Assembly: GCA_039621445.1 (NCBI GenBank) | Contig: CP154954.1 | Coordinates: 35,635,703 to 35,699,702 of the forward strand | DNA: 64,000 bases | Reading direction: 5' to 3' | Source of the DNA: Euglena gracilis | Taxonomy: Eukaryota | In this document: piece by piece, positions 7,311 through 33,353 of the stretch | Numbering within the stretch: the first letter of the stretch is position 1 | Layout of the letters: each line of letters starts with the position of its first letter | Position numbers and translations under genes: made by a program | Notes under the pieces: generated by a model | Databases searched by the model: none | The model's input: only the letters and a program-made list of their open reading frames with translations | What the model was told of the DNA's origin: nothing

Positions 7311-7635
7311 CATGCATACCAAAGCGGCTTTAAACTGAAATAAGCTTTGGGTACAGAAAAAATCTTCCAGAATGCAGAAAATTTTAAATCAATTTAATCA
7401 GCAGCGAAAGACCAGCAGTTGATTTTTGGCTATTTTTGGCTAGCTTTCAACAACTTTCGGTCGTTGCTTTTTTTTGCAATCTGACATCATTTTCTGTCAC
7501 GCTGCGATCATGGGGAGGGGGGCATTGGACTTTTTTCGCACCACTTTGTTTTGAAATTGTCAGCCATTTTATCAAAGAATTACGAAAAGCGTCTCTGAGA
7601 GCTACAAACGAATCGAGGCAGAGTTAAAGCAGTCC

Positions 7636-8024
7636 CAGGGTTCGATATAAGGACAGGTGGGGGGGGTGGTCTGGACCCTGCGGGCCAGGAGGGGGGGGGG
7701 GGTGGGGGGGGAACCCCCCACCTAAACAGGTGCGCGGTCAGGGTGGCCGAAAATTTTTGACCCCCCAAAACGACCAAAAGTGCCATTTTGGGCACTTTTG
7801 GGCAAAAATGTGGCCAAAAATGCAAAAAATTTTCGGCGCAAAGCGCCGGAGGAAAAAATTGACCCTTTTGGGGGGGTCCCGGGACCCCCCCCCCCCGAGG
7901 GCCGGTGCGGACCCCCTGGCAGGTGGGGGGGGGGGGTCCGGACCCGCCTGCGGGCCAGGGGGGGGGGGGGGTGGGGGACACCCCCCCACCTAAACCATGT
8001 ACGCCCTCCTTATATCGAACCCTG
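7636..8024. mobile_element. hAT-like MITE, 18-bp TIR, 8-bp TSD
   Basis: TIR CAGGGTTCGATATAAGGA / TCCTTATATCGAACCCTG; perfect TSD AGCAGTCC at 7628-7635 and 8025-8032. CAG termini with an 8-bp TSD are typical of hAT. Confidence 0.9.
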
Positions 8025-8389
8025 AGCAGTCCCCTGTTCAAGAAACAGAAGAGGGGGGAACCAAAAAGGCCTCAGCGAAAGTGCTCCAATTTTTTTGAAA
8101 GCCCCTTGAACATGGTCAAACCCCCCGGAATTCCAAAGATGCAAATTCCTGGGGTCCCCAACGCATCTCTCCAAATCGGCAGGCCTGGGACAGCGGCCAG
8201 CCATCTCCGGAACCCTGGTGGGGCTCCCCCACACCTGTGTGCAAACGCTCAGGACCCCCACCCAGCCACCTGCAGGACAACTGTGGAGTGGACTGTGGCC
8301 TGGAAGATTGTGCTTCTGGAGTTGGAGCTGGTCCAATGTGCCAATTGGCTCGATGCGAGAAGAAGCCCACCCCCAAAGGGGTTGCCGGC

Positions 8390-8450
8390 CAGTGCAGAAT
8401 TATACGCCAAGTGGTTGTCCATCACCACGATGTCAGAGTTGGCCAGCGCC
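8390..8450 (-). CDS. HK exon: receiver domain, phospho-acceptor Asp strand (3' end uncertain)
   Basis: (E)[16 protein letters not shown]; preceded by nonconventional 3' end CTG-ctggc. Confidence 0.7.
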
Positions 8451-11400
8451 GCCAGCAGGGGGTGTCTGAAAAGGAGAATGCCCCCCGGATGCCCCATAAA
8501 AAAAAACAGATATAGAGATAGACATAGATATAGATATAGATATAGATATAGATATAGATATAGATATAGATATAGATATAGATATAGATATAGATATAGA
8601 TATAGATCTCGATATAGATCCTTTAGATAGACTATAGATAGATATAGATATAGATATAGATATATATAGATCGATATAGTATAGATATAGATTTAAGTAT
8701 ATGGATCTAGAATATATAGATATGGATATAGATATAGATATAGATATAGATATAGATATAGATGTAGACGTAGATGTAGATATAGATATGGATATAGATA
8801 TAGATATAGATGTAGGTACAGATATAGATATAGATATAGATATAGATAGACATAAGGTAGATAAACTTATTCCTGACCCTGACCCCACCCCTGGACCTTA
8901 ACAAGCCTTTTCCAAATGCCCCAAGGTAGCCAGCCCCTGGGTTCCGACATAAACTGATCGACCTCGGCAGGCGGGTACCCACTTGGTGAAGGTATGGCGA
9001 AGTACCCGACGCGCAACGTCAGAATCATCGACACGTGAAGAGGGCCACATCCATGAGAAACAGTTTGAAAGGCCAAAAAGTGCGTGGGGTCCGGAATCCT
9101 CTGGTCCGGGGGTGGACAGTGCAGGGGCCAGAATGACCTAACCAGAAATGAGCGACAAAGCGGATTCAGGAACGGGCTGGGATGGCAAGGTCAGCGGGTC
9201 AGCAGTGTGACACGCGAAGGCATGAGCCGTGGACCAGTTTATCGAGGTGGGGGCTCCACTGTTTTTGTGTGATCAGCAGACGAAAGAACAGGAAGGGCGG
9301 AGCAGGGACCAATGCCCCCGCAGGCCGGAGAGGCCACCCTCGGCAAAAAATTTTGACCCCTGAGGGCAAGGGAGGCGGCGGCGTTTGCAGGCAGGGCCCC
9401 GCGGGGGTGGGCAGGGGTGACAATCCACAGGGCCTTCAGTGGAAACCGTCGGCCAGCGCTTTGCCCACGGCCAGCAGTCCTTCGGTTCTGACTTCAAAGG
9501 TTGGGTGTGTGGGGTCTCCAAAATAAACCCCCCAAAAAAACAAGACGCCCCCATAAAATGGACCTCCCAAGAATAAGACCACCCCGGACGTTCCGAGCAA
9601 AAATCCATGAAATGGACCCCCCCATGACGGTGGAAAAGGAATGGCCAGAGGCCTGAAGGAAGGCACGACAAGAAGAGGTGAAAGGTGGAAAGTGAAAAAT
9701 CTTTTCCTTGTGCCCCACTTTGGCCATCCTCGGAGATATCTTTAAAATGGCGTGAGAATCAGTGCTCAAAGGGGCATCCCAGAATAATTTTCCAAATATA
9801 AACACAAAAATTCTCCAGCAAAAATCCATAAAATAGACCCGCCCCATGAATAAGACCTCCCCCATCGGGCTTTCCAGCAACCGACCCATAAAATGGACAC
9901 GGGGAGGGGGTGTGAACAGTTTCCAAGATCCAGGCATCTTTTAAAGACCTCTGGGGGGAGGGAGGGTCCCCCCATCCACCCAGTCCGGCGCGGGACCCCC
10001 CCGGGGGGGGGGGGCGGGGACCCCCCAAAAAATCGGGCCGAGGACATTTCCCAAAGAATTTTCGGCGCTTCGCGCAGAAACCCATTCCCGGGCCTCCTGC
10101 CTGGGACCCCGGGGTCCGGACCCACCAACCCCCCCCCCCTCGGGGGGTTTTCTGACTTACAGTGCAGCTAAAAATTACGGAAGACAGAAATTTTGGGAAA
10201 ATACCCAAATTTTGCCATATTCTTTTTCTCGTAATTTTCTGACTCCGTCGGTTTCCGACGCCCTCTTGGGAAGCTGCAAGCACAATGCTGGGACGGCCAT
10301 GGTTTGACTCCTCAGAGTCAATGAGGACACACTGTGTCTTCGTGTTCAGCAAAACACCCGTTACGCACAAACTCGTCACAGCGAACGCATTTACGGGCTG
10401 TTTGTGTGCTACATTCACAAGGATGTGTGGGCTCAGCAAGAAGGGATGCTTTGAGGCAGGGCGGTTCTTACCCGCCCCGCCCTGGGCCATTGTCGCGTGA
10501 AAAATCGGGCGGCACTGAGGGGGGGGGGGTGACAATTGCCCGGGGTGACAATTTGGCTGGCACAAAGGGGGGGTGACAATTGCCCGGGGGCGTCAATTGC
10601 CCGGGCGTCAATTGCCTGGGGGCGTCAATAACCCGGGGGGGCGCGGGTAAGCAAATAAAAAAAATGCAACCTCACCCAGCACAACACGTGGGACGGCAGA
10701 GTCATGGTACAAAGTGGGGCCCCCATTCCCTCCCATACCTCAAAATTTTTGTTGCCCGCATGTTATTTGGCCTCCCGGACCCTGAAAACCTGTTTTGGAG
10801 ACGAAATTGAGTGTCTGTAGGAAAAAACGACGGACAGTTTTTGGACCGAAAACCATGGTGTTTGGGATCAAAAACTGGTCAAAAAAGTCAAAACCCCTCG
10901 AAAATAGTTTTGGGTCCGCAACCATTTTTTTTGGCCTCCCAGCCCCGGAAAACGTGTCCTTGCGCCGAATATGAGCGGTTTTCGACCCCCCGGCGGCCCC
11001 TTTTGAATCCCATTTTGAATCCCATGGTGGTTGGGTTTAAGAAAAAAAAGGTCAAAACAGTCGGAAAAAAGTCGAAAAAAATCGAAAAATTTTTATCCGA
11101 AACGATGTTTTTGGGCCTCCCAGGCCCGGAAAACGCGGTTTTGAGCTGAAAGCGTTCTTCAACCGCGCGACATGCAACTGTTCGAGTGCCCGGGGAGGGG
11201 GGGGGGGGCCCCCCCCCCCCCGACCACCCTGGCAAAAAAAAATAAACCTCATCCTTGTCTACCGATCTTTTCTGTGGTCAAATCGCGCGACGAATGAAAC
11301 TGTTCGAGAGCCCAGGGGCCATAAACCTCATCAACAAAATCTCCAAACCCTTCCCTCCAAACCCCCCATACCCCCCATACCAGGTATTGAATAGTGCTGA

Positions 11401-14400
11401 GCTCTTAATAAGTGCTCACCCACCCCTCATTGACACCCCCATATAAACCGGCTTAGGCGGCCTAACTCGCACTTAGCTTTGAAAGTGACTGTAAATTTGC
11501 GCCGACGCGCAAATCCCAAAAAAAGTTTGACCATCGACCACCATGGCCTGAGACTCGAGACAGTCTGAAAACAGTGTCTCCTTGCACCCCAGGGCCTGGG
11601 GACGAAAGCAACGACTGGGAACTGCACAGTCCACGGGCACAGCGCTCCCGAGTCCCAGTGTGCATGAACACAAAGCGCCGGGTGATGAAAATGAATGAAA
11701 ATGAAAGCGCAAATGGAAATACAATTTTTAAAATTGCAAAAGCAACATGGCTTGCGCCGAAGCGCAAATATAACTGTTTAAAACTTATCTCACAACGCAG
11801 GGAGACCACGGCCCTGGTGGAGTAACAACACCAGAGGGGATAGAGCACAAAAATGTAGAACAGGGGGACGGAAGCCTACTCTCAGTCACGTTGACTTAAA
11901 ACTGGTCAACATTGCGCGTCGGCGCAAGAGCCGCGTTGCTTTGACAATCTTAAAAGTGTATTTCTACTTGCGCTTTGGCGCAATATAACTCTTAAATTTC
12001 CATTCTTCATGAGCCTACCCATTGCGCTTTGGCGCAACAGCCATCAAGTTGTATTTTCCATTTTTATCACTGCGGGTGGAGAGAGCAGTCCTGGAAGCAT
12101 CTCATCACCAGAGCGGACAGAGCTCAGGTGGAGGGAAGCCTTGCCTGGGGCAGGAAGCCAACCCCCTGGTGTGTGAAAGCAACCACCAACTACTTGATAG
12201 CCAGACGTGCCTTGTCCTATGCGTTGTAAACCCAACTGCCAGTGCCGGAGGTTCCTCCCACTTGCCTCGCACTTAAGCGTGCCTGAGGGGCCCTTCTCTT
12301 TGGCCGACTTTTAAAAGTCGGAAAATACCTGTGTGGAAAAGAACAGGTACCAGATAAACCCTGGGAACCACAGCCGAGGAAACAGTTTTAGGCGTCGAAA
12401 GGGTGTTTTAAAGAAGCTTGTCACCCCCCTTTCCTCGCCCAGGATTTGAAGCACAGAACTTTGGGGATGAGCGAATGGAATTGAGAAACCGAAAGGGCCC
12501 ATCAACAACGGCGGAGAAGGGAAGACATGCTGACACGCCTTTTTTCGGTAATTTGCAACCCACCAGACAGCCACATGCAACGAGGCAGATGGAGGCATTG
12601 TTCAGCAGAAAAAAAACCTTTCTGTCAACGTCCCCAAAAACCCCACTTTGTGCACCGAGTGCAAGGTCACTGAGGCCCTCCCGCCTCCCGCCCACCATTC
12701 GTCTTATTGTAACAACCACTTCCTCCCCAGCACCTGAATAGTTCAAAAGCACCAACCCAGCTTCTGGCACAGCAGCGCACAAACCCTCCTCACCATTCTC
12801 CCCTATCCCCCACCTTCTCACACAGCACGAATGCATTCAAATACATCTGCCATTTAAAAGGACATTTGCTCTTAAGCGCAAATTTTTACCTTCCACTTAC
12901 GCGCAAATTAAAGACTTGCGCTTAAGCGCAAGCTAAAACAGAAGCCGCTGAGTTTGTGGGAGTCCCTCTGATGTGTTACGTGTGTCGGGGGCCCCTCTCT
13001 GCATGGCCAGTGCGGGCTTGGTGAGGAAATACATTTGCGCCGAAGCGCAAGGGACATGCCTACATAATGCACTGCTTGTTCATCCACATTACACGTCAGC
13101 CGCGTGTTTGCACTTCTCAGTTTTTTTGTATGATGGTTTGCGCTTCGGCGCAAATGCATTTCCTCACCTAGCCCGCACACTTGCTGTTCAGAGAGGGGCC
13201 CCCGACACACTGTAACACATCAGAGGGACTCCCATAAGCTCAGGGGGCTTCTGTTTTAGCTTGCGCTTAAGCGCAAATTTATAATTTGCGCTTAAGCGCA
13301 AGCTAAAAATTTGCGCTTAAGCGCAAATGTCCATAAACATTGCCTTCTGTGCCCGGCAGTGTGGGGCCTGGCGTTGCTCACCAGACGTTGGGACAGGTCC
13401 CTGGGCTTGCCCTCAATCCCCCCCACCCCCCCCACCCGGGTCGGTCCCCCTGTACCGCGCCTCCCGCTTCCACCACACAGGGATCACAACATTGTGACAT
13501 TCCGTTTTTTCCAACTTTTCACACTGTGTGTGTAGAGTCCACCCTCTGGATGCCTCAGCAACCAAACTCTTCACGGACATATCACAGAGCCAAAAAAAGC
13601 AACAAAAAGGGCCAATTGTCACCTGGACTGTGTGGCACCATCCGGGGAACACAGTCAAGGCTTCAAAAACGAGGGACTCACACCGGGGGTTTCGGCCCTT
13701 TTTTGGGAAAATTCACGTGTCTCGGCGGTCAAACCCAGGGTTTTGGACCTTTTTCAAAATGGTGCACAGGCCGAAAAACACCAAAATTGGGCCTGTTCCC
13801 CGGGTTCCAAAATCGGAAAATGATGCCCACGCCACCGTGGAGGGTCTCCGCGGAACCAGAGGGTCAAAAGGGTGGGTTCTACCGCCGGGTCTCAAAGAAA
13901 TCGAAAATTTGCGCCAAAGCGCAAGCTAAAAATGAAAACCTTAAGTGCGAGTTAGGCCGCCTAAGACCGGCCCACTCCATGGAGCTCTGTTGACTGAAAT
14001 GCAAAGGTTTTGTGCCCGAAACAGGGCGCCAGGGGGGGGGGAAACGCTCATTTTTGGCCCAAAATACACCTTTTCCGGGTCTGGGGAGCCAAAAAACGGC
14101 GTTTCGAGCAAAAAAAAATCTGGATTTTTTTCGTGTTTTTTTGACCCGAAAATGACCGAAAGTGAGTGGGTTTACAGCCCAAAACGGGGCGCTGGCGGGT
14201 CGAAAAACACTCATTTTCTGCCCAAAAACAGTTTTTCTGGGTCCGGGAGGCCAAAAAACATCGTTTCGTTTCGATTTTTTGACTTTTTTAGACCCGGTTT
14301 TGACCCAAAGTCAATGGGTTGGCAGCAGGCAAGGACAGTCATCCCCGGTTTTTGGTCTCCGGTGGGGTCCGGTGGGATCCGGTGGGATCCAGTGGGATCC

Positions 14401-17400
14401 GGTGGGATCCGGTGGGATCCGGTGGGGTTCCGGTGGGTTGCCTTGGGGGGGGGGGGATCGGGAATTCATCAATTATAAAATTGCAATAAAACAGCATTTT
14501 GGGTGAATTTGGTCATTTTCGGTGTTTTTGGCCCAAATCACCTGGTTTTGCCGGCAGATCTTATCAAAACTGTACCAATGGTCACCGAATCTGTGCACAA
14601 AATGGCCAAGAATGGCCAAAAGGGGGCAAAAAGTGGATAAAAAGCAGTCAGAAGTGGCCTAAAATGGACACAAATGTGCAAAAATAGCCAGAAGCAGCCA
14701 AAAATGGTCTAAAATGCCAAAATGCAGCCCACGGTGGTCAAAAGTAGCCAAAAGTGGTCCAAAATGGCCAAAAAAAAATGGCCAAAAAGGCAAAAAGCTG
14801 CTAATTTGCAGGAAACCAGACAAAAAAAAGAATGCAAGTCAACTACAGATGGGGTACTGGTGGAAATTTGTGAAAATTGCACATTCGGACATGATTCTTC
14901 TCACGCGTACCATTAATCCAGAAGAAAAATCTGTGCATGGAAAAAAAATCTCCGGTGGGATCCGGTGGGATCCGGTGGGACCCGGTGGGATCCGGTGGGA
15001 TCCGGTGGGGAACCCACTAGTCAAATGGTCGAAAAACACCGGTGGGATCCGGTGGGATCCGGTGGGATCCGGTGGGATCCGGTGGGATCCGGTGGCTGTC
15101 CTTGCCTGGCTGGCAGCCCAAAACGGGGCGCTGGTGGGTCGAAAAACGGTCATGTACGTCCAAATAACAGTTTTGCTGCGTCCGTGATGCCAAAAAACAT
15201 CGTTTCAGGTCAAAATTTTTTTGGATTTTTAGCGACTTTTTTGTCCCAGAGTGGGTTGGCAACCCAAAACGGGGCGCTGGCGGGTCTCGAAAACGATCAT
15301 TTTCGGCTCAAAAACAGTCCTTGGGTCATGATGGCCATCTTGGGTCTTGATGGGCATCATGGGTCATGATGCCCATTATGGGTCATGATGCGCACCATGG
15401 GTCATGATGGCCATGATGGGCCGGGGGGTCGAAAAACGCCCATTTTCGGCTCGGAGGCCAAAAGGCATGGTTTTGGGCAAAAAAAAATCGATATTTTTCG
15501 ACTTTTTTGGCCGAAAATGGCTAAGTCCACCAGTGGAAAAAGTGTACAAAATGGCCTCCATTGGTCGAAAACGGGCATATCTCGGACTGGGCGGGGAGTT
15601 GCGGGGAAATCAAAATACCGGTAGATGGGGCGTTCCAAGGGCTTCAAATTAGGTCTCTGGACATTTCCTTTCATTTTGCTTCATTTTCGAGATATTTTGA
15701 AAATTGACATTTTTTGGCCGAAATGGCAGAGTCCAAAGGGGGGGGGGCTTATCCAGGGGGGGGGGGGCGGTCCGATCCTACCCAGTTTGGACCCCTTCGT
15801 GCGTGAATGACTCGGGCCTGGCGGGGAGTTGGTGGTCAAACCAAGGAGATAAGGAAACGAGAAATCCAGTCGCTCGCGACTGGAAAAAAAAACGGGAACG
15901 GGGCCGGGATCATGGTGATAATCCGCCGGTTCCCGAGGTGGCCCCGAGGGAGGGGGAGGGGGGTTTGGGGGGGTTTTCCCCCAGGGGTAAGCTTCGCTCT
16001 TACCCATAAAGGGATAAGAGCTCAACGACCCCCCATACCCCCATACCCTAGGTATGGGGGCCCCACTTCGTGCCATATGTGGGACGTCATGTGAATTCAT
16101 GGCTAAAGAGAAGAAAAAGGAAAACTAAAAATTCCTTCTTAAATTAAGCAGAGAGAAGGAAGAAATTTTTGGAAAAAAACAGATTTTGCCAAAATTAATT
16201 CTTCCAAAATAAAAATTTTGCCAAAATTTTTTTAAAATTTTTCTCGTATTTTTTTGCTGTAATTTTTGTCTTCCGTAAGTTTTAGCCACACTGTAAAAAG
16301 AAGCCTGCCAGGGTCCCCTCCTTCCCCCTTTATGTCACGACTTTGTTGCAATTCCGGTCAATTATAAGAGTACGGTAAGCTTTCGGATGTGTACTTTGGG
16401 TATTGGCCACTCTTTGAACAAATTAGGCACAGATTTAGAAGAATACATTTTAAACCGCATTTTGGCCGAAATTTCGTCCAGACCACCTTCCCCCCCCCTA
16501 AACCCCCCCCCCCTAATAGAAGCACGGGTGCGCTTATAGCGGACTGCCGCCTCCGGCAGCGGGGGGGGGGGGTGTGCTTCTAGTCGGACCCTACCTGCGC
16601 GATTTCTTGTTGATTTCGTTTAGAGATCTCATCAAAATGGGGGGGTGCTTGTAGTGGACCGCAGCCTCCGGCGGCGGCGGGTGCGATTTTATTTAGACCC
16701 TGCGCTTGTAGCGGCCCCGCGCTTCTATTAGGGGGGGGGGGGGCGGGTTTATTTATAATTTAACCGTAACTCCAACCTATCACCAATACAACCCGAACCT
16801 GAACTTAAATGTGTTCATCCAAAACGCTGTCGCATGCCACCAACATACAGCAAGGTTCCGCATCGAAACCTTGGAAGTGGCTGCATTAAACATTTTTCAT
16901 TTTTTCATTGTATAATGCAGTGGTCCTGCTTGTATATAACGTGTGGGGTAGGCCCATGGCAGGAGGCTGCCATGTGTCCTGTTGTTTGTTGTTGGAGGGA
17001 GGAGGGGAGCACGTTGTGTTGTTACGCTGTAGTGCATTGGATTGTATTGGGTTAGGTTGCGGTCATGCAAGTCGGTGCGAGTGGGCGCGCACGGGAGCTG
17101 TTTGGGTTCAAAAGTGCATGCACAATTCCTGAAGACCTTGGGACAGGGTATGCGCATTGGGCAGGTGAAGCTGCGGTAAGAGGGGGGATTTCAAAAAAAA
17201 AACGGCACATGTAAGAAAAATTCCTTTAGAATGTACAAAGTACTTAACTTAACTCACGCTGAAGGATTATGAACTGTAAAAAGCTGTAGAATAAACTGCG
17301 AAAATCCCGAGCAGAGGTTTTTTAAGACCTGGGGGAAGAGGGGGTCCGGAACGCACCCACTCAACCACAGGGCCCGTGGGGGTTCGGGGGGACCCACTTT

Positions 17401-18095: not shown

Positions 18096-18134
<39 letters not shown>

Positions 18135-19034
18135 ATATATGGCAGCTCCCCGCTATATGGCCCCCCAGGGGGGGCATATAGTGGGGAGTAGGGGTCAAGA
18201 TAATTTTTTTGCGTTAATGATGGAATAGGGTTAGGTGCGCGAGTTAGGCTTAGGGTTAGCCTAACTTATAGACGGGCCTAACCCTAAGCCTAAGTCGCGC
18301 ACCTAAACCCTATTCTAAACCCCGTTATTGAAGGTATAGGGTAAGGTGCGCACATGCTAATTTGCGCTAATTGGCTATGTTGCGCTAATCGGCTATGTTG
18401 CGCAACATAGCCGATTAGCGCAACATAGCCAATTAGCGCAAATTAGCATGTGCGCACCTAACCCTATACCTTCCATTAAGGGGGTGCCCAACCCGGTGTC
18501 AAGCTTAGTCCCCCGGGGGGGTACTTAACTTAACACTTGCCATATATATAAGTGTGTGTATACATATATACATATATATAATGTATATAATATACATACA
18601 CGCATGCATATGTATATATCTGATCCCGAGACAGCCAAAACCAAAAAAAGTTCTTCAACAGCTTTAATTTTTTTGTCCCTGTTTGATCCAGGCATTCTTT
18701 GGGGGGTGCATTTTCGGGCCTCCAGTACCGTCTGTACCATGGCTGGCCGCCACCCCCCCCAAGAGTCTGTTGGAAAACCACAACACAGCGTCCAAACCCC
18801 GCGACGGCATGGGGGTGGTGGGGCAAATCCGTCCCCAGCCGGCGGTATCCTGGGTCCACAACGCCGGGGTCCTCAGGGGCTGCATGGGGGAGGACGACAG
18901 CTTCCAGGGAGGTGCGGAATACGACCCGCTCTCCTTCCTGCTGGAGCGACACGGCCATCCCAGAGATCTGGGCTGCGGGCAGGTGGCCAGCCTCCCAGGA
19001 AATGCCTTCGTTGCCATGGTCCGGCATGTGCACG

Positions 19035-19068
<34 letters not shown>

Positions 19069-19082
19069 CGTTGTGTGTTGTG

Positions 19083-19113
<31 letters not shown>

Positions 19114-19202
19114 ATGTGTGCATGTGTGCGCGTGCGCGTGTGCGTGCACGTGCGCGTGTGCATGCGCGTGTGCGTGTGTACGTGCATGCGTGTGTGCGTG
19201 TG

Positions 19203-19234
<32 letters not shown>

Positions 19235-19284: not shown

Positions 19285-22200
19285 AGAATCAAACCTCCTC
19301 ATGTAAAAAGGGTCAGAATTATGGACATAAAATAAGGCACCACAAGTATTGCGTGGGTTTGAGAAAATATGTTTGACAAATGTTAAGTATTTCAACAGTT
19401 TAGACAGGACACTTTAGATACAATAAATTTGTAGGATGGCATCCTTTCTAGTATTGTTTCCCATTCTCTCATGTAAAAGTTCTTCTCCATTTGGATCCTG
19501 GCCAGTCATATGCAACCCAGTGACAGCGTCTGAAGAAGAAAATTAATCAGAAGAGGAATCCACCGAACCCAGCCAGGGCCCCCTGACTGCCATAAACATG
19601 TGTCGCAGACCGAGGTTCTCCAGCACGGTGCTTTCAGATTCCACTGGTGGCCCGTGGAGCACCTGGTTGATGAACTCCTCCGTGCCAGCGACCCCCTCCC
19701 CAGGAAACGGTACACATAAATTAAACATGCTGTGACTGTTTGGACGCGAAAATGTTTCAAAAATGTTTCGCACATGTTTCAAAAATGTTTCAAAAAATGT
19801 TGCAAACATGTTTCAAAAATTATTGAAAATGTTTCAAAAAATCTTTCAAAAATGTTTCAAAAATACTCAAAAAATGTTTAAAAATGTTTAAAAAAAGTTA
19901 GATAAATATCATGTGATGACGCGGCGACAACGGCACCGCTGATTTCAATGATGGTGAGCAGGAAGATCGTCCACGGCACCGGTCCTCAGCCTCCCGAAAG
20001 GGAAGCGCTGCTCGGTGAGCTTTGGTTCCTCGGCCCGAACGCGGTTGGTGACCTCGAACACCACCCGGAAGCGATTGCCGGTGGCCTCGTCCAGGTTTTG
20101 GAGGGAAATTGCGAGGGTGGTGGGGGACGTGCCAGCTGCAGGCAACCCCCGTGGCTTGGCAGAACTGTGGTCGCGCCGTGCGCATACTGTCCTCCTCCCC
20201 CACGGAACCTTAAACCAGGGAGGGAGGCAACAAGGCCCTTGATGAAGTTGATTAAGAGATTCAGAGAGGGTGGGGGGCAAAGTCCTGCAGATTGACGCAT
20301 CCGGAATTCCGGATGGATGCAGATCGACCCAGCCAGATGCATCGGATAATTACGCCGTGCACATTTCCTCCTTTTCTTCAATGAATCCCACGAAGTTTCG
20401 TGAAGGGTTTTGCAAAACGATCTACTGCGACGGTTGACCGCAATGCCACAATGTGCGAAACCACATATCTCCAAACCACAAAAAAAATCAATTGATTCCA
20501 GCAAGGAAAAACATCAAAGAAATGTCTTTATTTTCCTTCACTGCGGAGTTGATTGGTCAAATGGGGGCTGGATAGATCAGGTGGGTTCATGAATGGGGAG
20601 GGGGAGTTCTGGGAAGGAGGTTCGTTGCTGCAAAATGATTTCCATGTGGAGAATTGGAACAAGCTGGTGCCATAGAGGAACGCCTTCCACCATCACTGGT
20701 GGGGATATTTAGCCAGAACAATTGTCGGCAGAAAAAAAATCTTACAGGAAAAAAATTGGACAAATTTTCGTCCAGAACTTTTCCCACGGCATTTTCTCTC
20801 ATTCCAGCCCCCCCCCCCCCGGTATCGTACCATGCAGCGGGGCCGGGGGCGGTCCTGGCCGTCGCCGTGGCACAGCGCGTTGGTCACGGCATTGTCCAGC
20901 ACGATCTCGCACGCCAGGGGGTCCAGCAGCGCCACCTCCGGGGCGATGTCGCACGCCACAGCACCAGCGCCCCCGGGGCCGGGGCGTGGGCCGCCACCGG
21001 GAAACCCCCCCAGCCCCCCTCCCAGGGTTCCCAGGGTTCCCCCCGGGGGGAGATATACTTTTCGGCGCCGAAGGAGTGGAAAATTTTATAAAAGGTTCTA
21101 TTTTTAGCATTTTTGCAAATTTTTGGCCGTTTTCCAGCCATTTTCGGGGAAAAGTCGGTGGGTCTCCCCAGTCCCCCCTCCCTGGGTCCCCCGGGGGGGG
21201 GGGGGCCCCCCCCCGCGGGCCGTCTCGCTGTCTGTACAGCAAGGCCTGCCCAGGTTATTTGACCCCCCACCCACCAGGGTAACCAGGATACCCCCGCCAG
21301 AGGGAGGGGATGGTCGCCCCCCCCCCGCCCACCTTGAATGGGTACCACGCCCGGGCTTCTTTTGTGATCAGATGCTCTCCTGGAACAGGTGGGAAAGGAA
21401 AACCCACACACACCACGGCCAATGGGCATCCTGAAAACTGAAACATTTTTGAATTTTAATGAATTTAAACTGGCAAAAAATGGTGTTTTGAGGGTTGGGG
21501 GGGTGCTTCTACCTCCATGTTTTTGCTGAAAAATTCCAACCCAGCTGAACTTGATGGTTTTTTTGAATGCGTGTGATTTTGTGGATTCCTACACAGCCCT
21601 GCCCCGCCCCCTCCGGAGACGCCTGTGGTGGGCGTCGGTTTCGCTGTCAGTTCCACGTGCTGGGGCCAAACTGCCAGCCAAAATGGGAACCGAAGCAAGC
21701 CCTGGGCGAGGGGAGGGGGCGACCCCCCCCCTTGCGCATTGCTCTTTTCCCGCTGGCGCCATTTTCCTGGTCAAATTCCTTCGGCGCCTTCGGTTCCACA
21801 GGAGCTTCCCCCGCTGCGAAATGCCACAGTCGGTGGAGGGGGGGGTCCCCAGGCATTCCCATACAAAGACGGCCCTGTGGCTATGTTGGCCTGGGACAAA
21901 CCCAGCTCAGGAGCCGGGGCATACACCGGGGGACCACAAAACTTTCTCGTCAACATCACATTCACATTAACGTTCACATTCTTCACGTTCACATTCCCAT
22001 CACGAAACCCTGCGGCGGTCCCACTCGGCCCGGGTGGCTCTGGCCATTGCGGCCCTGCACCACATCTGCGCCAAAGGTCTGCAGATCAGTGGCGACGGCA
22101 GAGCCCGCCGGGGTGGCCCGCCCCAGCCCAGCCCCCTCATTCTTCTGCAGAAAAAAAAAATGAACGCCGGCCGAATGAATGCAGGGGGGGGGGGCAGGAA

Positions 22201-25200
22201 GCGGGGGAGACGAAGGCTTTGAGGGTGTGAGGGATCGATTTTGATTGCATTTTCATTTGGGAGCACATGTTCTTGTGCAGGGAATCCTGGAATTTCCTTT
22301 GATTTAGAGACAGGTCGTGCCCCGAGTTATCGTCCACAGCACATAGCCGACACTCAGCACATAGCCGACAAACGGATGGCTGGAAAAACTTTCAAGGGTT
22401 TCTTCCGATTTGGCAGGGTTTTGGGTTGGTGGGTCAGTCCCCCCCCCCCCGGTGGTTGATCCTTGTGAAATAGTGGGTGGGTTTGGGCTTGGAAAACAGT
22501 CCCCAGGTGTCACTATGTGGCCCCATGGGAGTAAATTTTTTGGGGGTAAGCAGGTGGCTCTCCAGTCTCTTTCGGCGTCAAATTTCCGGCGAAATTCATG
22601 TGACCCCCGCCCACCACAGGATAGAGGGGCGGTCCAACTGTCCTAACCCACCCACCCACCCGGGGGGGGGGGGGGTTACGCAGGTGTTAAACGGACCTAT
22701 GGTTTCCACCTGGAAGTCAGCGAGTACAATCCTTGTAATGGATTTTTCAACATGACAATTCAGTCGGTGCAGTCTGTAGTGACTGATGAACACAGGATGG
22801 CAAAGGCCCATGGTGAGAGGGCACCTTGGACCGTGCACCATACCTCTCCACAGTTTGGATGCTCCGGCGGAGCCCATGATGCATTAAGAACCTTCAATTT
22901 CATTTTTGTCACAAAGTGTGCCCATGTGGAGAGGGAACACAATGTGAAAATCCAGGAAAAAAAATGGAAAAAGTGCGCATGAAGGCAAAAAAAAGACAGA
23001 GGCGTCGTAACGGAAGCTTCTCCTTCGTCCGTTCCTTTCCCTTCACTGCCCACACATTCAGACCATCGCAGGCAGACACAAACAAAACTGTGCAGGACCC
23101 TTCAGGACCGCCAATCGCACCGGCCAGATGCCTGTGCGCCTTCCCCCGACGCACCCTGGGGGACCAGCGTTGGGGTGTAGCTGCTGGACGTCATCCGCAG
23201 GATGGCCTCCCGGCGGCGGCACCAGCTCATGCCCCGCTGCAGGCACTACTGCCAGGCGGAATTTGACCAACCCCCCCCGCCCCGGGGGGTGGGGTCGGCC
23301 TCGCCTTAAGCTTCAGCCTGATTGGCGTGCCTGCTGCAGCTGCCCCAGGTCCGCCCCCGCACGGCGGGAGGCCCAGCCCACAGCCCCGCCTGCCCCTCCG
23401 GCGGCTCGGCCGGGGGCGACCCCACCCCCGGGCCGAGCGTTGCGCTCAGGGGTTATTTTTTCTAAGACCGGGGGGGTCACGGGGGACCCACCCACTTTTC
23501 CCCGAAAGTGGCAAAAAAAAATCGCAACCTTTTTCAAAAATTTTCGGCGCCTTCGGCGTCGAAAAGTATATCACACCCCCCTCCCTGGTTCCCGGGGGTC
23601 CAAGGCAAAAAAAAACCCTGGTTGCGCTCGCCTGCCCTTGGTCCCTCCACGAGGCGGGGGGGGGAGGCAACTTTTGGAGCGGATTCCGCGGGGCTGGGGA
23701 GGAAGGCTGGCGTTGCCCTGTCATTCTCTTGCTTTCTTTTGGTCGCAAAAGGCAACAGAGTTCCCTCGGGGATTTTGGTAAAACTCTTCTTTCTCTCTTG
23801 AGAAAATTGCACTTCTTTATGTGAGCACCCATCAGCTTGAGCCGGCTTGCATGTCAACCCCCCCAAGAAATTGTTGCTGGACAAGTGCCAGGAACATACA
23901 CTTCTTGTCGACTACCAGGGGGGAGGGAGGTCACTTTCAACATTCAAACAACCAGTTGGTCGCTTACCAAAACCAGTCGAAACACTGCCTGTCGGTCATT
24001 TTGGCACTGAGACCAAAATGGCTCAACCTTAATTGATATTGGCCAAAAAAACCCAAAAAATCCGGCGGCTTCGGCGCAGGCTGGTCCACTTTCGGGCGGC
24101 GATCACTTTTGGCTCCGAACCCAGGGGTGGTCCGGAGCAAAAAACTACTCAGTCGATCCAAAAAAAACCCCAGTCTCTAACCCCCCGGGTATGCAATGGT
24201 GTGGTCAGGAACCCTGACAACCTCCCATGATGACAGCTGGACTGTTGCAAATTCCAGGGCCGGATCCAGTTCTCGAGTATGACAGCTTCTTGGGTGAGTT
24301 GATATGCAATGGCATCAAACTTGTGCAATGTATCTCTCGCCTTCAGCTAATCACTTTCCTGCCTCCAGATTCCAGGTTTTGTCTTCTTAACCTTAGAACT
24401 ACCTGAATAATTACTTTGCCTTACCTTAACTTGCCTCACCTTAAAATTTAGGATGGGTCCTCTTTATGGTGGGAATAGGGAAAAGCTCCCAAGGGGTGCT
24501 CATTCAAGGGAATGAGCCTGAGTTGGGTTGTCATCCTTGAAGACCCCCCCCTTGATCCCTCAAACTCCCCATGAGGCTTTGCCTCGCTGCTGTCCTGTGC
24601 GCGCACACTTCCGGGTGTACGTTTTGGCTGACGCCAGACAACTATGTGCCCCGCATTAAGCTCCCCCCCCCACTTATGCCCAACAACCAGTGATCTCTGT
24701 CCCCAGCCGGGTGGTGGTTGTTGGACACGTTTCAGCCAAAAAAAGTATCCTCCGATTGGGGGGGGGGGGTCGTTGGACATCGGGGGAGGGGGCAGTTATG
24801 GGAAATGCATGCTTTCCATACAGACTCCAAAGAACAAAACAAGGTCTCATGGTACGATGGCACAGCGGGGCAGGAGGCTGGGGGTGGGGTGCCAGGAGGG
24901 GAGGGGGTTAGGCCCGTTGGTGTTTACAATTTCGACAAAAAGCTCGCAGCACCCGTAAATGAACTCTCTCCAGGCCTGTCTTGCTTTAAAAAGTTTTGAT
25001 GCCCACACCTCATGTGACTATGTATCTGACTCATTGAGGGGGGGGGGTGCTCACAAAAAAGATCGTGCCTGGACAGTCATCCAAACGGGCCCTTCACGCT
25101 TCTGAAGGCAGGGCCTCGCCGGCTCTCAAAGAGGTAGATGCAGCCCCAGGCGTCCGCCATAGCATTCTTCAGGATGGGCGGAGGGCGAAGCGTCGGGAGG

Positions 25201-28200
25201 GTTGGGGGGCGGCCGATTGGGGGGGGGGGGCTGCCATGGAGAACTGGGCGGAAAAAGTCTGCTGTAGTTCCGCCCCCCCCCCCTAAACCCCCCGGCATTC
25301 CACAAACCAAGGCTTCTGACTCCCCCCCCACTCCGTCTGTGCTGCAAAAAAAAAACAGGTCGCACTCACAGGGTGGCCCATCAGATGGTGATCGTAAACC
25401 ATGACCTTCTCCGATAACCTTGCATACACCCGCAGGGGTCGAAAGTGATTTTTCTCGACCCAGAACTGCACATGAAGCCTCGACTTTTTTAAAAACTGTA
25501 AGCGGTCTCCCCCAGGACGTCGTCAAATGACGTCCCACAACCAAGGGGTAGATTCAAAATGACATTCACCAAACTCAACGCACCAACGCATCAAAAGCCC
25601 CAAGCATAAACCTTTGTAAGTAAACCTTCGTCAGTTTGGGCTGACGCAAGAACTGATGTCCCAGGCACCGTCTTCATGCCCCAACCGATAGTTCTCGATA
25701 TGACGCCTCTGTTTACAACATGACTTTGGTCAATGTCTGTGTTCCTAAACACAAGATTTGGCACGTCAAAGCCTGCGTTCAGAAGCGCAGACTATGCCTG
25801 CTGAAGATGGGGATAGCTCAAAGATGGGGGGGCCGGAAACCATGTGCACCTTGTCCTCTTTGTGGTTGAGCATGGAATCTGCCTTCTCCGATGCCCGCTT
25901 CAACGCCTTCTCGCGCTGCATCTGATCGTGCAGGGACTGTGCCTCGATCACAGAGCAGCACCAAACACACACACGCACGCACGCACACCCATATGCAGGC
26001 GTGCACACACTTATAAATCTGATGAAAGTGTGCTGCCGATGCAAATGCATGCGATCCCCCATGTGCACACAGGAAAGAACCAGGGTGGCCCTGGTAGCGG
26101 GTCAGGGCGCTCTTCAAGACGAAGTCCGCCTGGAAGTGGCGGTGCTGCAGGACCAGCATGTAGAAGCTGGCGCAGATGGAGTGGCGGGAAGGGGTCCCCC
26201 GCGGCACGCATGTGGTGCGGACGAAAATGATGGGAAAAAATATTACCGAAAAGGCTCATGGGAAAATCAGATAATTTTCCCATGAGTTTTGTCGCCCATG
26301 ATTTTTGCCCGGACTGGAGCCCTGGCCTGAACCTCCCGCCCCTGCCCCCCCCCCCCCCCAGGTTGCTGGTTGAACTGGGGGGGGGGGGAGGTCCTCGTTT
26401 CCTGATGACAAGCACAGCACTTGGCTACCGTAGACCAAGTCAGACAAAAAATTCAAAACGGGGCTCAGTTCGGGCCAGCTGGGGCATCCACCAGGGTATT
26501 GCGTGAGAGGGGGGGAGGTGAGGGGAGGGGGGTGGTCCCGACCCCCCTCTCCCCGGGAGAGGGGGAGGGGTCGACCCTCAGGTGTAAATAATAAATAAAT
26601 AAAAACGGCACAAAGGGCCGGAGATAATTTGAGGGGCTTCAAAAAATGCCCAAATTGTGTTTTCAGGTGATTTTTCTACCAAATTGATAAAAATAGATGA
26701 TAAAATATAAGTCTGCTGGCGCGAGGAGCCAAGGAAAACAAATAATTTTTTTGGTTCCATGGGGGGTCTCCAGACCCCCCTCAGCTCTGGGGGGGGGTCC
26801 GACCCCCCCCGGGGTATTAAGTGAGTGGGGAGGAGGTGGTCTAGACCATTCGGTTACTGGCAGAAACTCCAGGGGAGGGCTTCTATTGTAAAACCCTTTG
26901 CATACATGGTGGCTATTTTTGGCTGTTTTCAGCTTTTTTTGGCTCCTTTTGGTTCTTTTTTGACCATTTCATCGCTTTTGGCCATTTTCATTGTTTCACT
27001 GTTGTCTACTGTCATTTTTGGTCCTTTCGGCAGGCTTGGAATTTTTCAGCCAATCCATAGGTAATTTTTTTGGACAAAAACTTGCACAATTTCAAACTGC
27101 TTTCAGAAATTTACACCAATTTTGGACTTTTTTTTTGGTAATTTTGCCCTTTTTTCCACCTTTTTCTCGTCACGTTTGGCACTTTCATTTCGAAAATTTA
27201 TGGCGTGATAGGTGTAAGGTTGATGCTCATGAGTGAAGAGGGGAGGGTCGGAACCCCTGTCAAAACCAAGACTCACTTGGGGCCCTGGCGAACAGGATTT
27301 GTCTCCGGGACAGGTGAAAGGGATGGGTGCCCCCCCCACTTTCCTCGGATGCGGGTAGAAGACATTCAGAAAGTCGGGGTTCTGGACGCCACACCAGAAC
27401 CAGGAGGCCCAGAAGGGCCTGATTCGATGGTCGTCCCCAAGCAAAAACTTGGGCCATACCCCGGGATGTGCGAAGAGACAACTTCAGCACACCACAACTG
27501 CAACGAAAAACACATACACCTCTGGGGTCAGGATTGCTCCGGAATGTGGGGGGTCCAGGACGTGTGAAACCCAATGCCTGACAGCGGACAACACAATCTC
27601 ATTGAAGTGCCAGAAAACGACCCGACAAAAAAAAAAAAATTGCATAATCTTTGCTTTCCAAAATCATTGGGCTTTCGAAATTCTAATTTATGCATGATAA
27701 AAGGAAACAAAGGACGATTAAGCCAGAGCAAAGATGCAATAAATTCGTGAACAAAAGCATGGAGAACGTTTGGGTGATGGACATGTGAAGGTTTTTGGAC
27801 AGTCATCCAACCAACTTCCCCTAGTAAATAAGACCAAAAAAAAGCCCCCCCCCAAACAAGAGAAAGGGGGAAGTTCAAAAGACATACGCCCCCGAACATG
27901 CGAAAATGCCCCGAAAAATGGGTGGCTTTTGACATTTTCTTTATGTTTATCCATTTTGAGGGGTTGAAATGAGCATGATTTGAGATTTTTTTTGCTCGTT
28001 GCCGAAATATGGTGCTTTTTGAACCTTCCTGAGGGAGGCGTTTATTCAGCCGAATTTTTTGGCAAAAAAATACAAAAAAGTGGACCCCAAAAAAATAAGA
28101 TCCCCTTGGGGATTTTCAAAAAAAGGACCCAAAAGTTGACCCAAGGACTTATTGGGGAAGGAGGGGTTACAATAATGGCAGCCAGAGAACTTCATTTGTA

Positions 28201-31200
28201 CGTACTCCAAAGGATGCATGGCCAAGTGCCACGACAAGGATTCTGTCACCCCCCCACTTGATTTGCTTTACAGAAGTGAGCGCTGAATCAGGGTAGAGGA
28301 TGGGCACACCCTAGCAGAGGCTCGCACCCAGAATCCCCAAAAGGAGACCCAAGGACAAATTTCATTTAAAAGAAACTCCTGAGCTCCTCCAAAGAATTAC
28401 TGTGGGTTCCTCACCAGCAGTCCAAAAGGTTCACCCAACCTGCAATGGCAACGGGTGGGATCTGAGGTTGGCTTGAAATCACGTTTTTCCTTCCTGCGCC
28501 ATGTCTCCACCCCCGGTGGGTTGCTGCTGCAAGTCCTGATTTTGGCCCGGCCCTGAGGTGTAATGAAAACCTTTGGCGTTTGTCAATGACGGTTGTCAAT
28601 GAGGGTTGTCAAACCTTTGACGGGTTGTCAATGAGGGTTCCTCCAACTTCTCGGGGAAAAAAAGAACAACTTTTTTTTAAAAAACAGCAATTAACTTTTC
28701 CTATTTATAAAAATGAGCTGGACAACCCATTTTTTTCAACACAATCTCAGCTATTTCATTTGCAATCTTTCTGCCATTCCAATGCAATCCAGTTTCAGCC
28801 TGTTAACGCACACGTCACTCACATCGTCTGCTCTCCAAAACCCTTCGAGCCAAATTTTGCAATGACGCAAAATTCCATATCGGGGATGAGAGAACGTTCC
28901 CCCGCACACCCAGTGCGGATGGCGACAACGCAACGATGGGCGCCGGGCAATCGCTGGGCGGGATATTAGTGTCGACCTGCGGTGACAGGTTGGCGATCAG
29001 GGCGACGGTGACCGGGATGGAGAGGTATGTGAGGACGAACCACACGTTGCGGGCAGGGCGGGAGGGAGGGGTGGAAGGGGCGCAGCGGGGGACGCAAGAT
29101 GGACCAGCGAAAAATACACAACAAAAAAAAAACACAACAAAACAGCACAAAACAGAACAAAAAAAAACACACAAAAACACACAAAAAAACACACAAACGA
29201 AAACACAAAAAAAACACACAACCACGCAAAAACACAATAAAAACACAATAAAAACACAATAAAAACAAAAAACAAAAAAATGCAAGTTGCGCCCTCCCCG
29301 CTGCTCTGAGCCTACTAAGTAGATTCCAATTCATGACGAGTCGACTAAGTCTCCCAAAGGCGCATTGAACTGATCACTGCTGAGAGAGACAGCAAGCGCA
29401 CAGCACGCACACTGGACGAAAATACACCTGAGATGATGAAAGAGAGGCTTTTCGTCAACCAGGGATCAAAAGCAAGCTGCAACAGGAGTTGGAGTGCCTG
29501 ATCCCCACAATGTGTGCAGGAGGCCAATAAAAAATCGTTGCAACACACCCCAGTGAGTTGCTCGAAGCCTTACAAGTGTCCAGCCCTGCACGAAAAGGCA
29601 CGAAACTGACGATAAAACCAAAATCAAAGCTTCTGAGAATGCCCACGCGGCTGGACAACAGCACTTGGACTGCATTTTCCTGCGGGGGACGCTTCCACGC
29701 CACACACACCGTGTGTTGCACGCCGCATACGCTGCATAAACACGCACCGCGTGTTTCACGCCATGCACGCCGCGCCGCACGCCGCATGTGACGTGCGACA
29801 CCTGCCAGGCCATCTTAAGAACATTTTGCAGGTACTCGGCACTGGGCACTGAGCACTGGGGGGATGGACCACTGGGATGGATGGATGGATGGATGGATGG
29901 AAAAAACGGACCAGCTAGACCCCCCCTGGGGGAGGGGTCCGGGGTCCCCCGACAAAAACAAATTTCCTCCGGCGCTTTGCGCCAGTCATTGGAAAAAAGC
30001 TTTCCATTAGCTAGCCTGCTAGCAGACCCCCCCCCCCGGCGGGGTCCATTGGAATTCCCGCTAGCTAAATTTGGACCCCCCCCCAGGAGGGGTGCTGCGA
30101 ACCCTTGAGCAAAGGCCTGACACCCTGGGCGACGCCGATGAACTGCAGCAGGTCAAAGAGCAGCAGCAGCTGAACGGCAGCGATAATGAGGTGCTTGCGG
30201 CTGGCCTCCCGCGTGATGTATGGCCAGGCGGGGTTCAACCAACCCTGGGGGGGGGGGGCAGGGAGAGAAATTCATATCGGAGGCCTTCAAAAAAATTGCG
30301 GAAAAATTGTGGGAAATCGCGGAAAATTCTAGAAAATTTGCAGAAAAATTGATATCGGGAATGTACGCATTTCTGCTGGAGGAAACTTAAAAATTTTTTG
30401 CAATTTTGCAACATTGGTGTACCTAAAATATACCAACATTGGTATATTTTGAGCCGTCGTTCACACATTTTAAAACAAAAAGGCCCAAAAACATGACTTT
30501 TGTAATTTTGGGAACGTGCTGTTCAAAGAATATGGATTTTGTTGGCAAAAAAAAAACGAAAACGGCGAAGGACTGATAAAATCTTTGGTCTCAGGGAAAA
30601 ATCTGCTCTACAATGAAGATTTTTCCAAGTCAGAATCATTTCCCAGCAGAAATGCAAAAGAAGCCAAAAACACACAAAAGCCTGCAAATTTTGCCCAAAA
30701 TGGCAAAAATTGGGAAAATTTTGAAAAATTTGCACGAAATTAGCAAAAAGGTACTTGCATTCCATTCTTGCGAACCATTCAAGGAATGGCTGGGACTCAT
30801 TTCACCTTCCATTTCAGATTCATGCGGACAAATTACGGAAAGAGAAAAAATTGCGGAAAAAAAATGCGAGAAATTGCGGGGAGTTGCTGAAAATTGTGGA
30901 AATTGCGGAAAAATAATGGATATCAATCCCCCCTTGGAGGGGGGTCCCAAAGTGCCTTGGAGTGTCTGGCTGTGGACTCGAAATAGGGGCAAGAATGGCT
31001 CTGTTCAGGTCTTCCACTTGGCCGAGTGCCCAGTCCCTTTTGACCATGGGACCCCCCCCCCCCGGGTCGGATCTAAGTGCCTTGGGCTGCCTGCACAGGC
31101 AAACACCCTCCCCCCCCCCCGCCAGATCCGACCACCCAGGGTGGGGTGTCCAGCTAGCGCCTTTTCCCTAAAGGAACTTCTTGGCCTGGTGTCCCTGAAA

Positions 31201-33353
31201 GGCTGGTTTGCCGACTCCATTTCAGCACCAAGTGCCGAAAATTATAGGGACTCGAAAATGGCCCCCAAAATGGTCATCCCGGGGGTGGGGTCGGCGACAC
31301 CGTAAAAGTCAGCCTGTGTACTGCTGCAGCTCTATCGTCAAATAACCGTTGGCTCGCAGGGTGAAGAGGAGGTCAACGGGAGAGGTGGGCCTTTTGAAGC
31401 AGTGTATTCGGGAGGCGCGCAACTGTCAGAGAATGTGCATTTGCCTTCTTCATTCAAAAAAGCAACGAAAATAGAACGGTGGTTTCCAAATGTAAAATAA
31501 AACTATGATGTGCATCTCTGTTTTGAGAGCTTTTTTTTGCGCATTGAGTGCTTCCTCTTCATGTGGCACTTCGTTTTCCAAAATTAAAGCAAACAAAAGT
31601 AAACAAATGAAAAATAAGAAAATAAAAAGAAATGATGCCCCATTGTTGTCATCCTGAACATCCTGCGTCTGCAGCTTGGTCCACACATCAGGCAGCGCGT
31701 CCCGTTGACTGACCACCAACTCCAGACCAATCATATCGTGGGCCTGCCAGGGACAGAGCCGACCCGAGTCCAGCGTCTGTGGTGCCCCCCAAATAACCTG
31801 GCAGGACCCTTGCCCCTGGCAGTGGCCAAATAACTTGGCGGGGGGAGGGGCAAAAAAGACGGTTCCAGTAACTTGGCACCTCCTTTTTTCAGGCAAAATC
31901 CCTTTACGACACCGAGAAAAAGCAAGGCCCAAATAACCTGGCAGGAGGGCAGGGCCAAAAGTTGGTTCCAATAACCTGGCACCCCGCCAGGTTATTTGGG
32001 GGGGGTTACCTCCCTCCCACCTTGTCCTTGGCACGCCAAAGGACGGGAAAGTGTGTTTGACATGGGGGCGGGGGTGTCGCGGACCAGCCGTGTCAAGGAC
32101 ATGGGGGGGAGGGTTCCTCAAATTACCAGTCTGCCTCTCAAAGGCCCAAGGGCTGTCCGTCTCACCTCCTCCCCTCCTGAAACTCCTGAAACTCCCCCCA
32201 GTTTTAACCTCCAGCCTCTGGCATTCCCCTTTCGAGCACCCGCCCCAACCCCAAACTCAACATACAAATGCGGAAACCAATATGCCTCTTTAGACCCTTG
32301 GTAGGCAAAACGGTGATTTGTGGACCCCTTCTATGCGATGCACTACCCTCGGATTACAACCCCCCCCCCACCAGACCCCAACCCCTGGAGTAAAAAGTGT
32401 GGGGCCACAGGCCACCGAAAAGCCCCAATCAATCAAAAGCAGTGGAAGCACACAGCCATGGCAAGTGCAGAGTTCACATAAAAGTGGACATGCCGCTGAA
32501 GGCGGTGGCCCACTACAGCGTACCCCTGAAAGTTCACCTCCACTTCAATTGGGGGTTCACCGAGAGAAACCCTGGCCAGATGACAATGCCGACCAGGGAC
32601 AGCGCCGAGAGGCACAGCAGCCCCTCGGAATGACCCCAGGCAGGGAGGCAGGGGGTTGGGGGGTTTGGCAGCTATCTGGGGAAGCCCCTTTGTGGAAATG
32701 GAACAGGGTGAGGTCTGGGACGTGGAAAAGGCACAGCGGCCACTGGCGAACCACACCGGTGCCCAAGTGTCCTGCAATCGATGATTGTCGCGGCGGCAAA
32801 CAGGCTTGTGCTTACCGATGGGGGGGGTGCTATGGGGTGCCTGCCCCTAGCACCCCCCCATGGGGTAGGCACCCGATTAAGCACAAGCCTGGCGGCATAT
32901 CCGACACACACACAACTAAGGGGCCTGGGAAGTTTTAATCCGCTCTTCGTAATCTTCCAATGGCGCTGATGTTCATGTCACAATTTTCTCATGACGCAAA
33001 AGATTTTCCCTTTCAAAGGTGTAATGGCGGGAAGGGACGTTACCTCCCCCAACCCCAGCAGAGGTTTTGTACAACTCTGGCCAAGCGGTGGGTTGTTGGG
33101 TTGAACCTGAACTCTTACCCTGAAGCGACCATGGGTGTATACAGGAAGTCAGAGACACTGAAATTAAACAAATAACCTTTCCAGGTCGAACTCAGACGGA
33201 AATTAAAAGCAAATCCAATCAGCACCCCACAAGGCAGGTCGGCCCCTGACTAAAAAAAAAAATCCTGTTCCAATACGCTTCAACCAAAAAATTAGGATTT
33301 TTTACATGCAGGCGGCACTGCGTGCTTGCGTGCATGCGTGCGGGCGTGCTTTT

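Follow-up and report, generated by a model that had tools for sequence, protein, structure and literature searches.

CAG...CTG miniature transposons with 8-bp duplications in a Euglena gracilis window and their possible link to the 3 + 5 geometry of nonconventional introns

The nonconventional (NC) introns of euglenids, whose origin and mechanism of removal are questions that go back to the 1990s, are recognised by their geometry (Milanowski 2014, 2016; PNAS 2025, PMC12501133): a CAG is located at positions +4 to +6 and a CTG at positions -8 to -6, the two ends of the intron are paired, a pyrimidine precedes and a purine follows the junction at both ends (Y/R, the slash marking the cut here and below), and direct repeats are frequent at the junctions. 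Here, we describe a stretch of 64,000 nucleotides of Euglena gracilis DNA (assembly GCA_039621445.1, contig CP154954.1, positions 35,635,703 to 35,699,702 of the forward strand), hereafter "the window", which carries MITEs, transposable elements of the miniature inverted-repeat type, that begin with CAG, end with CTG and are flanked by 8-bp target-site duplications (TSDs); resident, non-intronic copies of exactly this build are what sets the window apart from the euglenid NC intron literature. An earlier note on this DNA, made from its letters alone, had proposed that the 3 nt and the 5 nt that separate the cuts from CAG and CTG add up to one such duplication, and it is this proposal that we weigh.

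The PNAS study (PMC12501133) places the donor cut 3 nt before the CAG and the acceptor cut 5 nt after the CTG, as seen in 87,843 NC introns of E. agilis that are non-slidable, and reports that a single substitution in either triplet abolishes splicing, and that synthetic 50-bp introns (3-nt and 5-nt spacers, paired ends, a purine first in the exon) splice from a foreign site. The published work further states that the 5' spacer tolerates no change in length, while the 3' spacer has its optimum at 5; that 84% of E. agilis introns have direct repeats at their junctions; and that NC introns reportedly make up about 70% of all Euglena introns. In the published view, NC introns are removed by a non-spliceosomal machinery with a circular product, and the excised introns are described as full-length circles (among others in the Mob DNA 2024 review). 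A MITE origin of NC introns was put forward in a 2013 paper, which bears out the remark of the earlier note that a transposon origin had been suggested before; according to the same paper, euglenid genomes had until then yielded no identified transposable element. The Mob DNA 2024 review names CAG/CTG a terminal inverted repeat (TIR) and calls the junction repeats TSD-like, and the authors who described a newly gained gapC intron remarked on its "eight nucleotide direct repeats", proposing double-strand-break repair. A link between the sum 3 + 5 = 8 and the length of a duplication, or an assignment to hAT, was not found in the literature searched, subscription papers (e.g. the 2021 J Mol Biol work on circular RNA) lying outside it; the terms "8 bp", "8 nt" and "hAT" are absent from the Mob DNA 2024 review, and "TSD" and "hAT" are absent from the PNAS text. 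It is the link of the 3 + 5 spacing to the 8-bp duplication that is new here; the 3 + 5 geometry and the idea of a MITE origin are already known.

The interpretation that we discuss would be best filed among the transposon-to-intron systems of the introner kind. The introner elements of Micromonas, Aureococcus, dinoflagellates and others (Mob DNA 2024) are DNA transposons whose insertions turn into introns, the duplication being co-opted in such a way that it is spliced out together with the element. They use spliceosomal GT/GC-AG signals, partly derived from a 3-nt duplication, whereas here no such sites delimit the intron, the CAG and CTG ends being located 3 and 5 nt inside the cuts, and the cuts would be set by their distance from the paired ends. 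The MITE-derived noncanonical introns of Fritillaria borealis and Amoebophrya are also lineage-specific and carry TIRs and duplications at their borders; they differ in that their removal is thought to proceed via an adapted spliceosome and in that their duplications are 3-5 nt long.

The window holds a group of non-autonomous cut-and-paste DNA transposons, i.e. MITEs, with CAG...CTG termini, 12-18-bp inverted ends and 8-bp duplications. The two that had been reported in the earlier note, each with a perfect duplication, are both present as described (the first two lines below); four more of the same build have been added, and two doubtful candidates complete the list:

7636-8024 (span 7628..8032): element of 389 bp with the perfect 18-bp TIR CAGGGTTCGATATAAGGA and the 8-bp duplication AGCAGTCC at 7628-7635 and 8025-8032.
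23447-23620 (span 23439..23628): element of 174 bp with ends CAGGGG..CCCTG, a TIR of 12/14 and the duplication GTTGCGCT at 23439-23446 and 23621-23628.
54221-54503 (span 54213..54511): second copy of the 23447 family, 283 bp, in the opposite orientation, with flanks TACAAGGC and TCCAAGAC (6/8).
59853-59941 (span 59845..59949): short element of 89 bp with a TIR of 12/14, the perfect 8-bp duplication CCCACAGC and a hairpin fold.
32801-32891 (span 32793..32899): short element of 91 bp with the perfect 14-bp TIR CAGGCTTGTGCTTA and flanks GCGGCAAA and GCGGCATA (7/8).
14326-15108 (span 14318..15116): long element of 783 bp with the 13-bp TIR CAGGCAAGGACAG and flanks GTTGGCAG and GCTGGCAG (7/8).
25074-25939 (span 25066..25947): doubtful element with a stem of 5 bp only and flanks TGCCTGGA and TGCCTCGA (7/8), about 1.4 such pairs being expected by chance at a stem of 5.
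52961-53006 (span 52953..53014): doubtful CAG..CTG unit of 46 bp with CCTGGGCA on both sides, in a stretch that is locally repeated.

In the six firm elements, the terminal inverted repeats match at 12/14 to 18/18 positions and the flanks are identical at 8/8, 8/8, 8/8, 7/8, 7/8 and 6/8 positions; the elements are small (89-783 bp) and non-coding, the open reading frames (ORFs) that overlap them having no Pfam match. One family has two copies in the window (23447 and 54221, which align end to end at 76-86%, with 76% over 139 nt against 23472-23605) as well as a partial relative at 21045-21186, and the other elements are single. The copy at 23447-23620 is located within the span of a putative minus-strand gene, the element at 32801-32891 is intron-like in its size and hairpin, and the element at 14326-15108 carries arrays of TCCGGTGGGA in its subterminal parts. 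Internal repeats of the AAAATGGCCA type and G/C runs (GGGGGTCC) are common to the elements at 7636-8024 (at 7700-7860) and 14326-15108 (at 14599-14796), which hints that the CAG..CTG elements may belong to one wider group.

The length of the duplication is fixed at 8. We have collected all pairs of CAG and CTG that lie 40-3000 nt apart and share at least 11/14 complementary end bases between positions 6500 and 60500 (122 pairs), and we have counted direct repeats at each length from 3 to 13 nt: with 8-nt flanks, three pairs are perfect (0.0025 expected) and five reach at least 7/8 (0.06 expected), a number that 0/20000 permutations of the right flanks attained, while the lengths 9-13 give no cases and the lengths 5 and 6 are within expectation, the enrichment occurring at 8 only. 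When pairs with exact stems are sorted by stem length, the flank identity is 22-26% at stems of 5-9 bp, as in shifted-register controls, and 56% at stems of at least 10 bp (n = 6); the window null for such pairs is 25-26% identity. A second family of TIR transposons, with two inverted copies that are 73-82% identical, is also present in the window:

11452-13965: copy of 2514 bp with ends CTTAGGCGGCCTAACTCGCACTTA, without CAG ends.
55329-57512: copy of 2184 bp, in inverted orientation to the first, with the same type of ends.

The duplications of this second family (ACCGG and TGGGA) are perfect and 5 bp long, and its ends lack CAG; the length of 8 is therefore tied to the CAG..CTG class and does not hold for the window at large. 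A pyrimidine-purine step is found in at least one orientation in 8/8 window duplications at duplication position 5/6, where the proposed cuts would fall (window null 0.385 per site; P of about 5e-4 for all eight and 0.003 for the six firm elements, on a small sample). This agrees with the published junction consensus Y/R, which could have been inherited from a target-site preference.

The arithmetic of the proposal is logically sound, and the resident elements have the CAG..CTG ends and the 8-bp duplications that it calls for. NC introns share the architecture of the MITEs: their paired CAG...CTG ends lie 3 nt from the 5' cut and 5 nt from the 3' cut, on the inner side of each. When an insertion is fresh, each cut would fall within its copy of the duplication, after position 5 and before position 6, and since the cuts would be at the same point of both copies, the restoration would be scarless: the excision of 3 nt, the element and 5 nt would delete exactly one duplication and return the original mRNA, in either orientation of the element. 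Such a splicing rule would let a CAG..CTG class of transposons settle in exons. From these sequence features we infer that the introns descend from the elements and that the rule is matched to the duplication, and we consider it fairly probable that NC introns descend from insertions of CAG..CTG MITEs with 8-bp duplications and that their excision rule is matched to the length of the duplication. The wider statement, that most euglenid NC introns are decayed copies of one CAG..CTG class, with a 3 + 5 rule matched to its duplication and a Y/R consensus that largely reflects the target preference of a transposase rather than a splicing signal, is offered tentatively, as something that may well turn out otherwise. 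A rule by which the sum of the spacers equals the duplication length of resident transposons would connect observations that had stood apart in print (the spacing of 3 and 5 nt, the abundance of direct repeats at junctions, and the 8-nt repeat of the new intron), would explain how a genome can tolerate a mass colonisation of its exons, and gives tests that can be applied to the existing EgGSL2 knock-in assay and to existing intron catalogues, which list 649,158 junctions for E. agilis and 413,446 for E. gracilis.

Published junction tables have been reread in the 8-nt register, by hand and with no check by script. In three species- or strain-specific NC introns, a perfect 8-nt direct repeat abuts the inverted ends, and the annotated cut falls after the fifth nucleotide of each copy: Lepocinclis spirogyroides tubB position 12, TTCCT/aac CAGGCCTTTTT...AAAAGGCCTG ttcct/AAC (inner ends CAGGCC...GGCCTG); Monomorphina pyrum tubB position 13, ATCCC/tcc CATACCTCTG...CAGAGGTATG atccc/TCC; and E. 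agilis ACOI 323 gapC position 4, GTCCC/aac CATTACCTTG...CAAGGTATG gtccc/AAC (CATTACC...GGTATG), an intron that is missing in other strains. In 23 rows marked N or N/I in the 2013 tables (one row of ambiguous print having been dropped, and several rows representing the same gene position), 94/184 positions are identical (51%), against a rough consensus-matched estimate of about 37% from position-specific base frequencies; for positions 1-4 no consensus is known, and there 41/92 are identical (45%). These readings support a fit of the published junctions to the predicted 8-nt register.

Several observations weigh against this interpretation and are gathered here. Of the three published introns with a perfect repeat, two have CAT..ATG ends rather than CAG..CTG, and CAG-CTG is found at the expected positions in only 26.7% of the non-slidable E. 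gracilis introns. In older introns (nine positions common to six E. agilis strains), the flanks share about 3.0/8 positions (about 37%) against about 2.6-2.7 (about 33%) in a consensus-matched expectation, with no clear excess; little identity in older introns is what decay would predict, yet it gives no positive support. One added nucleotide in the 3' spacer is reported to leave 60-70% of the wild-type transcript, which makes the length of 5 an optimum rather than a strict measure. The earlier note had counted 11 resolved introns that obey the CAG/CTG rule: its two best cases have been located, with the geometry that was claimed, while the set of 11 stays unconfirmed, chance chains giving 10-16 (see below). 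Lastly, no transposase, including the hAT transposase with the same TIRs that had been named as a thing to look for, is found among the 384 ORF translations from the window that were scanned with Pfam (110 + 124 + 150, a few ORFs being counted more than once; 150/176 ORFs in the set for 32-61 kb).

The rival explanation that best withstands the evidence, although we consider it unlikely, is that of a coincidence: the 3/5 offsets would be set by the RNA-cutting machinery (e.g. a helix-measuring endonuclease with a 2-nt stagger), the MITEs would be unrelated, and the repeats at the junctions would be a product of microhomology or of double-strand-break repair. The literature includes a proposal of RNase III-type enzymes for such introns, the very authors who saw the 8-nt gapC repeat proposed an origin by break repair, and both the flexible 3' spacer and the small excess of identity in old introns sit well with it. 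Such an explanation, however, needs three coincidences, i.e. in the terminal triplets, in the paired ends and in offsets that sum to the duplication length; break repair predicts no fixed length of 8 together with inverted ends, but the three young published introns have repeats of exactly 8 nt abutting their inverted ends, and the repeat-length profile of the window peaks at 8 only.

A second alternative, which we hold to be less likely still, is that the elements are MITEs of the ordinary kind, unconnected with splicing in this genome, and that the "introns" of the window are artefacts of annotation by hand in a region that is mostly repeat-rich and non-coding. The following features of the window bear on it, the 8-mers quoted in the earlier note having located two introns only:

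19681..20013, minus strand: intron A, 333 nt, ACC/GAG-CAGCG...CGCTG-GCACG/GAG, with flank 8-mers TCACCGAG and GCACGGAG (6/8).
30220..31319, minus strand: intron B, 1100 nt, AGT/ACA-CAGGC...GCCTG-GCCAT/ACA, with flank 8-mers identical at 6/8; a candidate based on geometry alone.
20828..20977, minus strand: histidine-kinase-like ATPase exon that matches the protein P0002 and anchors a minus-strand gene.

Both introns have the euglenid geometry, with CAG at +4 to +6, CTG at -8 to -6 and a purine (G and A, respectively) that opens the downstream exon, and the flank identity of 6/8 that had been given for the two best cases is seen in both. Their end stems are only 5 bp long (CAGCG with CGCTG, and CAGGC with GCCTG), and 1220 pairs with an exact 5-bp stem occur in 54 kb. 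The interval of intron B contains nested repeat DNA, since it includes a copy (31037-31119) of a short repeat family whose members, at 31037-31119, 36796-36926, 52771-52897 and 52979-53046, are 77-85% identical.

In favour of an artefact, none of the 384 ORF translations has a credible Pfam domain of any kind, three-base periodicity is found in the satellites of the window and nowhere outside them, and chance chains of "introns" arise on both strands. The last point comes from a chaining control, where open frames between 19000 and 32600 were joined through CAG/CTG candidates by dynamic programming: each chain contains 10-16 "introns" on either strand, the plus strand scores equally or higher, the translation of one chain (minus strand, penalty 60) is a junk protein, and the flank identity across 16 chance chains is 16-33%. 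Frame continuity and geometry thus yield chains on both strands, for which reason it may be circular to say that the rule holds in all 11 introns; chaining CAG/CTG candidates ab initio by open frame has been rejected as evidence of introns, as the wrong strand performs equally well and the protein is junk. The count of 42/88 identical flank positions over the 11 introns in the earlier note, if it is correct and if the introns were picked blind to their flanks, is well above the window null of 25-26%.

An artefact is harder to reconcile with intron A and with the gene around it, a histidine-kinase-like ATPase gene that extends over 19546-21085 on the minus strand. When the ORF at 20696-21085 (minus strand) was searched against 1.84 billion representative proteins, P0002 was the sole detectable relative in that set (E 7.5e-4 library-wide, 54% identity); tblastn places the match at 20828-20977, with E 5e-9 within the window. 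P0002 is one uninterrupted ORF of 252 aa on a 1.35-Mb contig and, by our own reading of its sequence, it appears to be an ATPase of the histidine-kinase type, after which a receiver domain begins. The two conserved stretches that come next in P0002 can be aligned to the window only with 19681-20013 taken out (FLLTNRANPQRAPLTDRW...GLGLQHIRM versus ...NLGLRHMFM): across the junction, the spliced alignment scores 42, which 14/500 shuffles attain, and the unspliced alignment scores 31, which 173/500 attain. The homologue thus lends intron A modest support. The four positions to which the borders of intron A can slide give GA..CG, AG..GG, GC..GA and CA..AG, none of which is GT/GC-AG, so that this segment cannot be a GT-AG intron; it obeys the CAG/CTG rule. 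Given the spliced-only alignment and the absence of a GT-AG slide position, at least one nonconventional intron of the window is most likely genuine (19681-20013, with flanks at 6/8). An in-frame CAG..CTG intron was looked for between the two ATPase exons and not found, and the intron upstream of 19681-20013 is probably a conventional one whose GT donor lies at 20830. No match came from word-based protein searches, at two length settings, with 20696-21085 (minus strand).

That the direction was the reverse, the NC introns being the mobile units (e.g. via the circular RNA that is excised) and the MITE-like copies between genes their descendants, is highly improbable: the excised introns are full-length circles that would include the 3 + 5 = 8 flank nucleotides, but each resident element has its own distinct 8-mer on both sides, as is typical of staggered cutting at a fresh target site, and a flank carried over from a source intron would look otherwise.

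As to the class of the elements, hAT transposons have the terminal motif YARNG and the target preference nTnnnnAn, and short TIRs that open with CAGGG resemble the ends of Ac/Ds. The window elements and Ac/Ds-like hAT MITEs have in common the 8-bp duplication and the short TIRs that open with CAGGG, an opening that is seen in four elements (7636, 23447, 54221 and 59853). They differ in that two elements (14326 and 32801) open with CAGGC, in that the target motif fits 1/8 duplications, and in that no transposase is found among the window ORFs scanned. The label "hAT-like" used in the earlier note therefore denotes a likeness in the 8 bp and the CAGGG ends, not membership, the assignment to hAT being unproven. 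The first 9 nt (CAGGGTTCG) of the end of the first element (7636-7652) are identical to those with which the paired end of intron 5 of hsp90 begins in E. agilis strain WA (agt-cagggttcgcttaaggg); the match may be due to chance, about 0.4 such matches being estimated over all comparisons. A scan of metagenomes with the 18-nt TIR of this element returned 8 loci that have the seed alone in common, judged to be chance matches.

Among the remaining features of the window, the second TIR transposon family (11452-13965 and 55329-57512) contains many TTGCGCTTAAGCGCAA palindromes, and its first copy has an additional foldback of about 440 bp at 12860-13332; this 2.2-2.5-kb repeat had been considered as a paralogue that might inform on introns, and it has been rejected as such, being a different transposon. 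Scans of the window with Rfam and for transfer RNA genes gave no matches, and a PDB sequence search with three window ORFs returned nothing relevant. Near-perfect palindromic foldback units of 90-164 bp, 83-95% self-complementary and without CAG ends, are located at 18223-18315, 18320-18483, 37046-37167 and 37870-37959. A (CTCTGT)n microsatellite of 6.4 kb occupies the left edge (1-6390), and further very long arrays are located at 42493-42791 and 60761-63999: (TGG)n, followed by (AAG)n, (AAT)n, (GAC)n and (AGG)n, which fill the last 3 kb.

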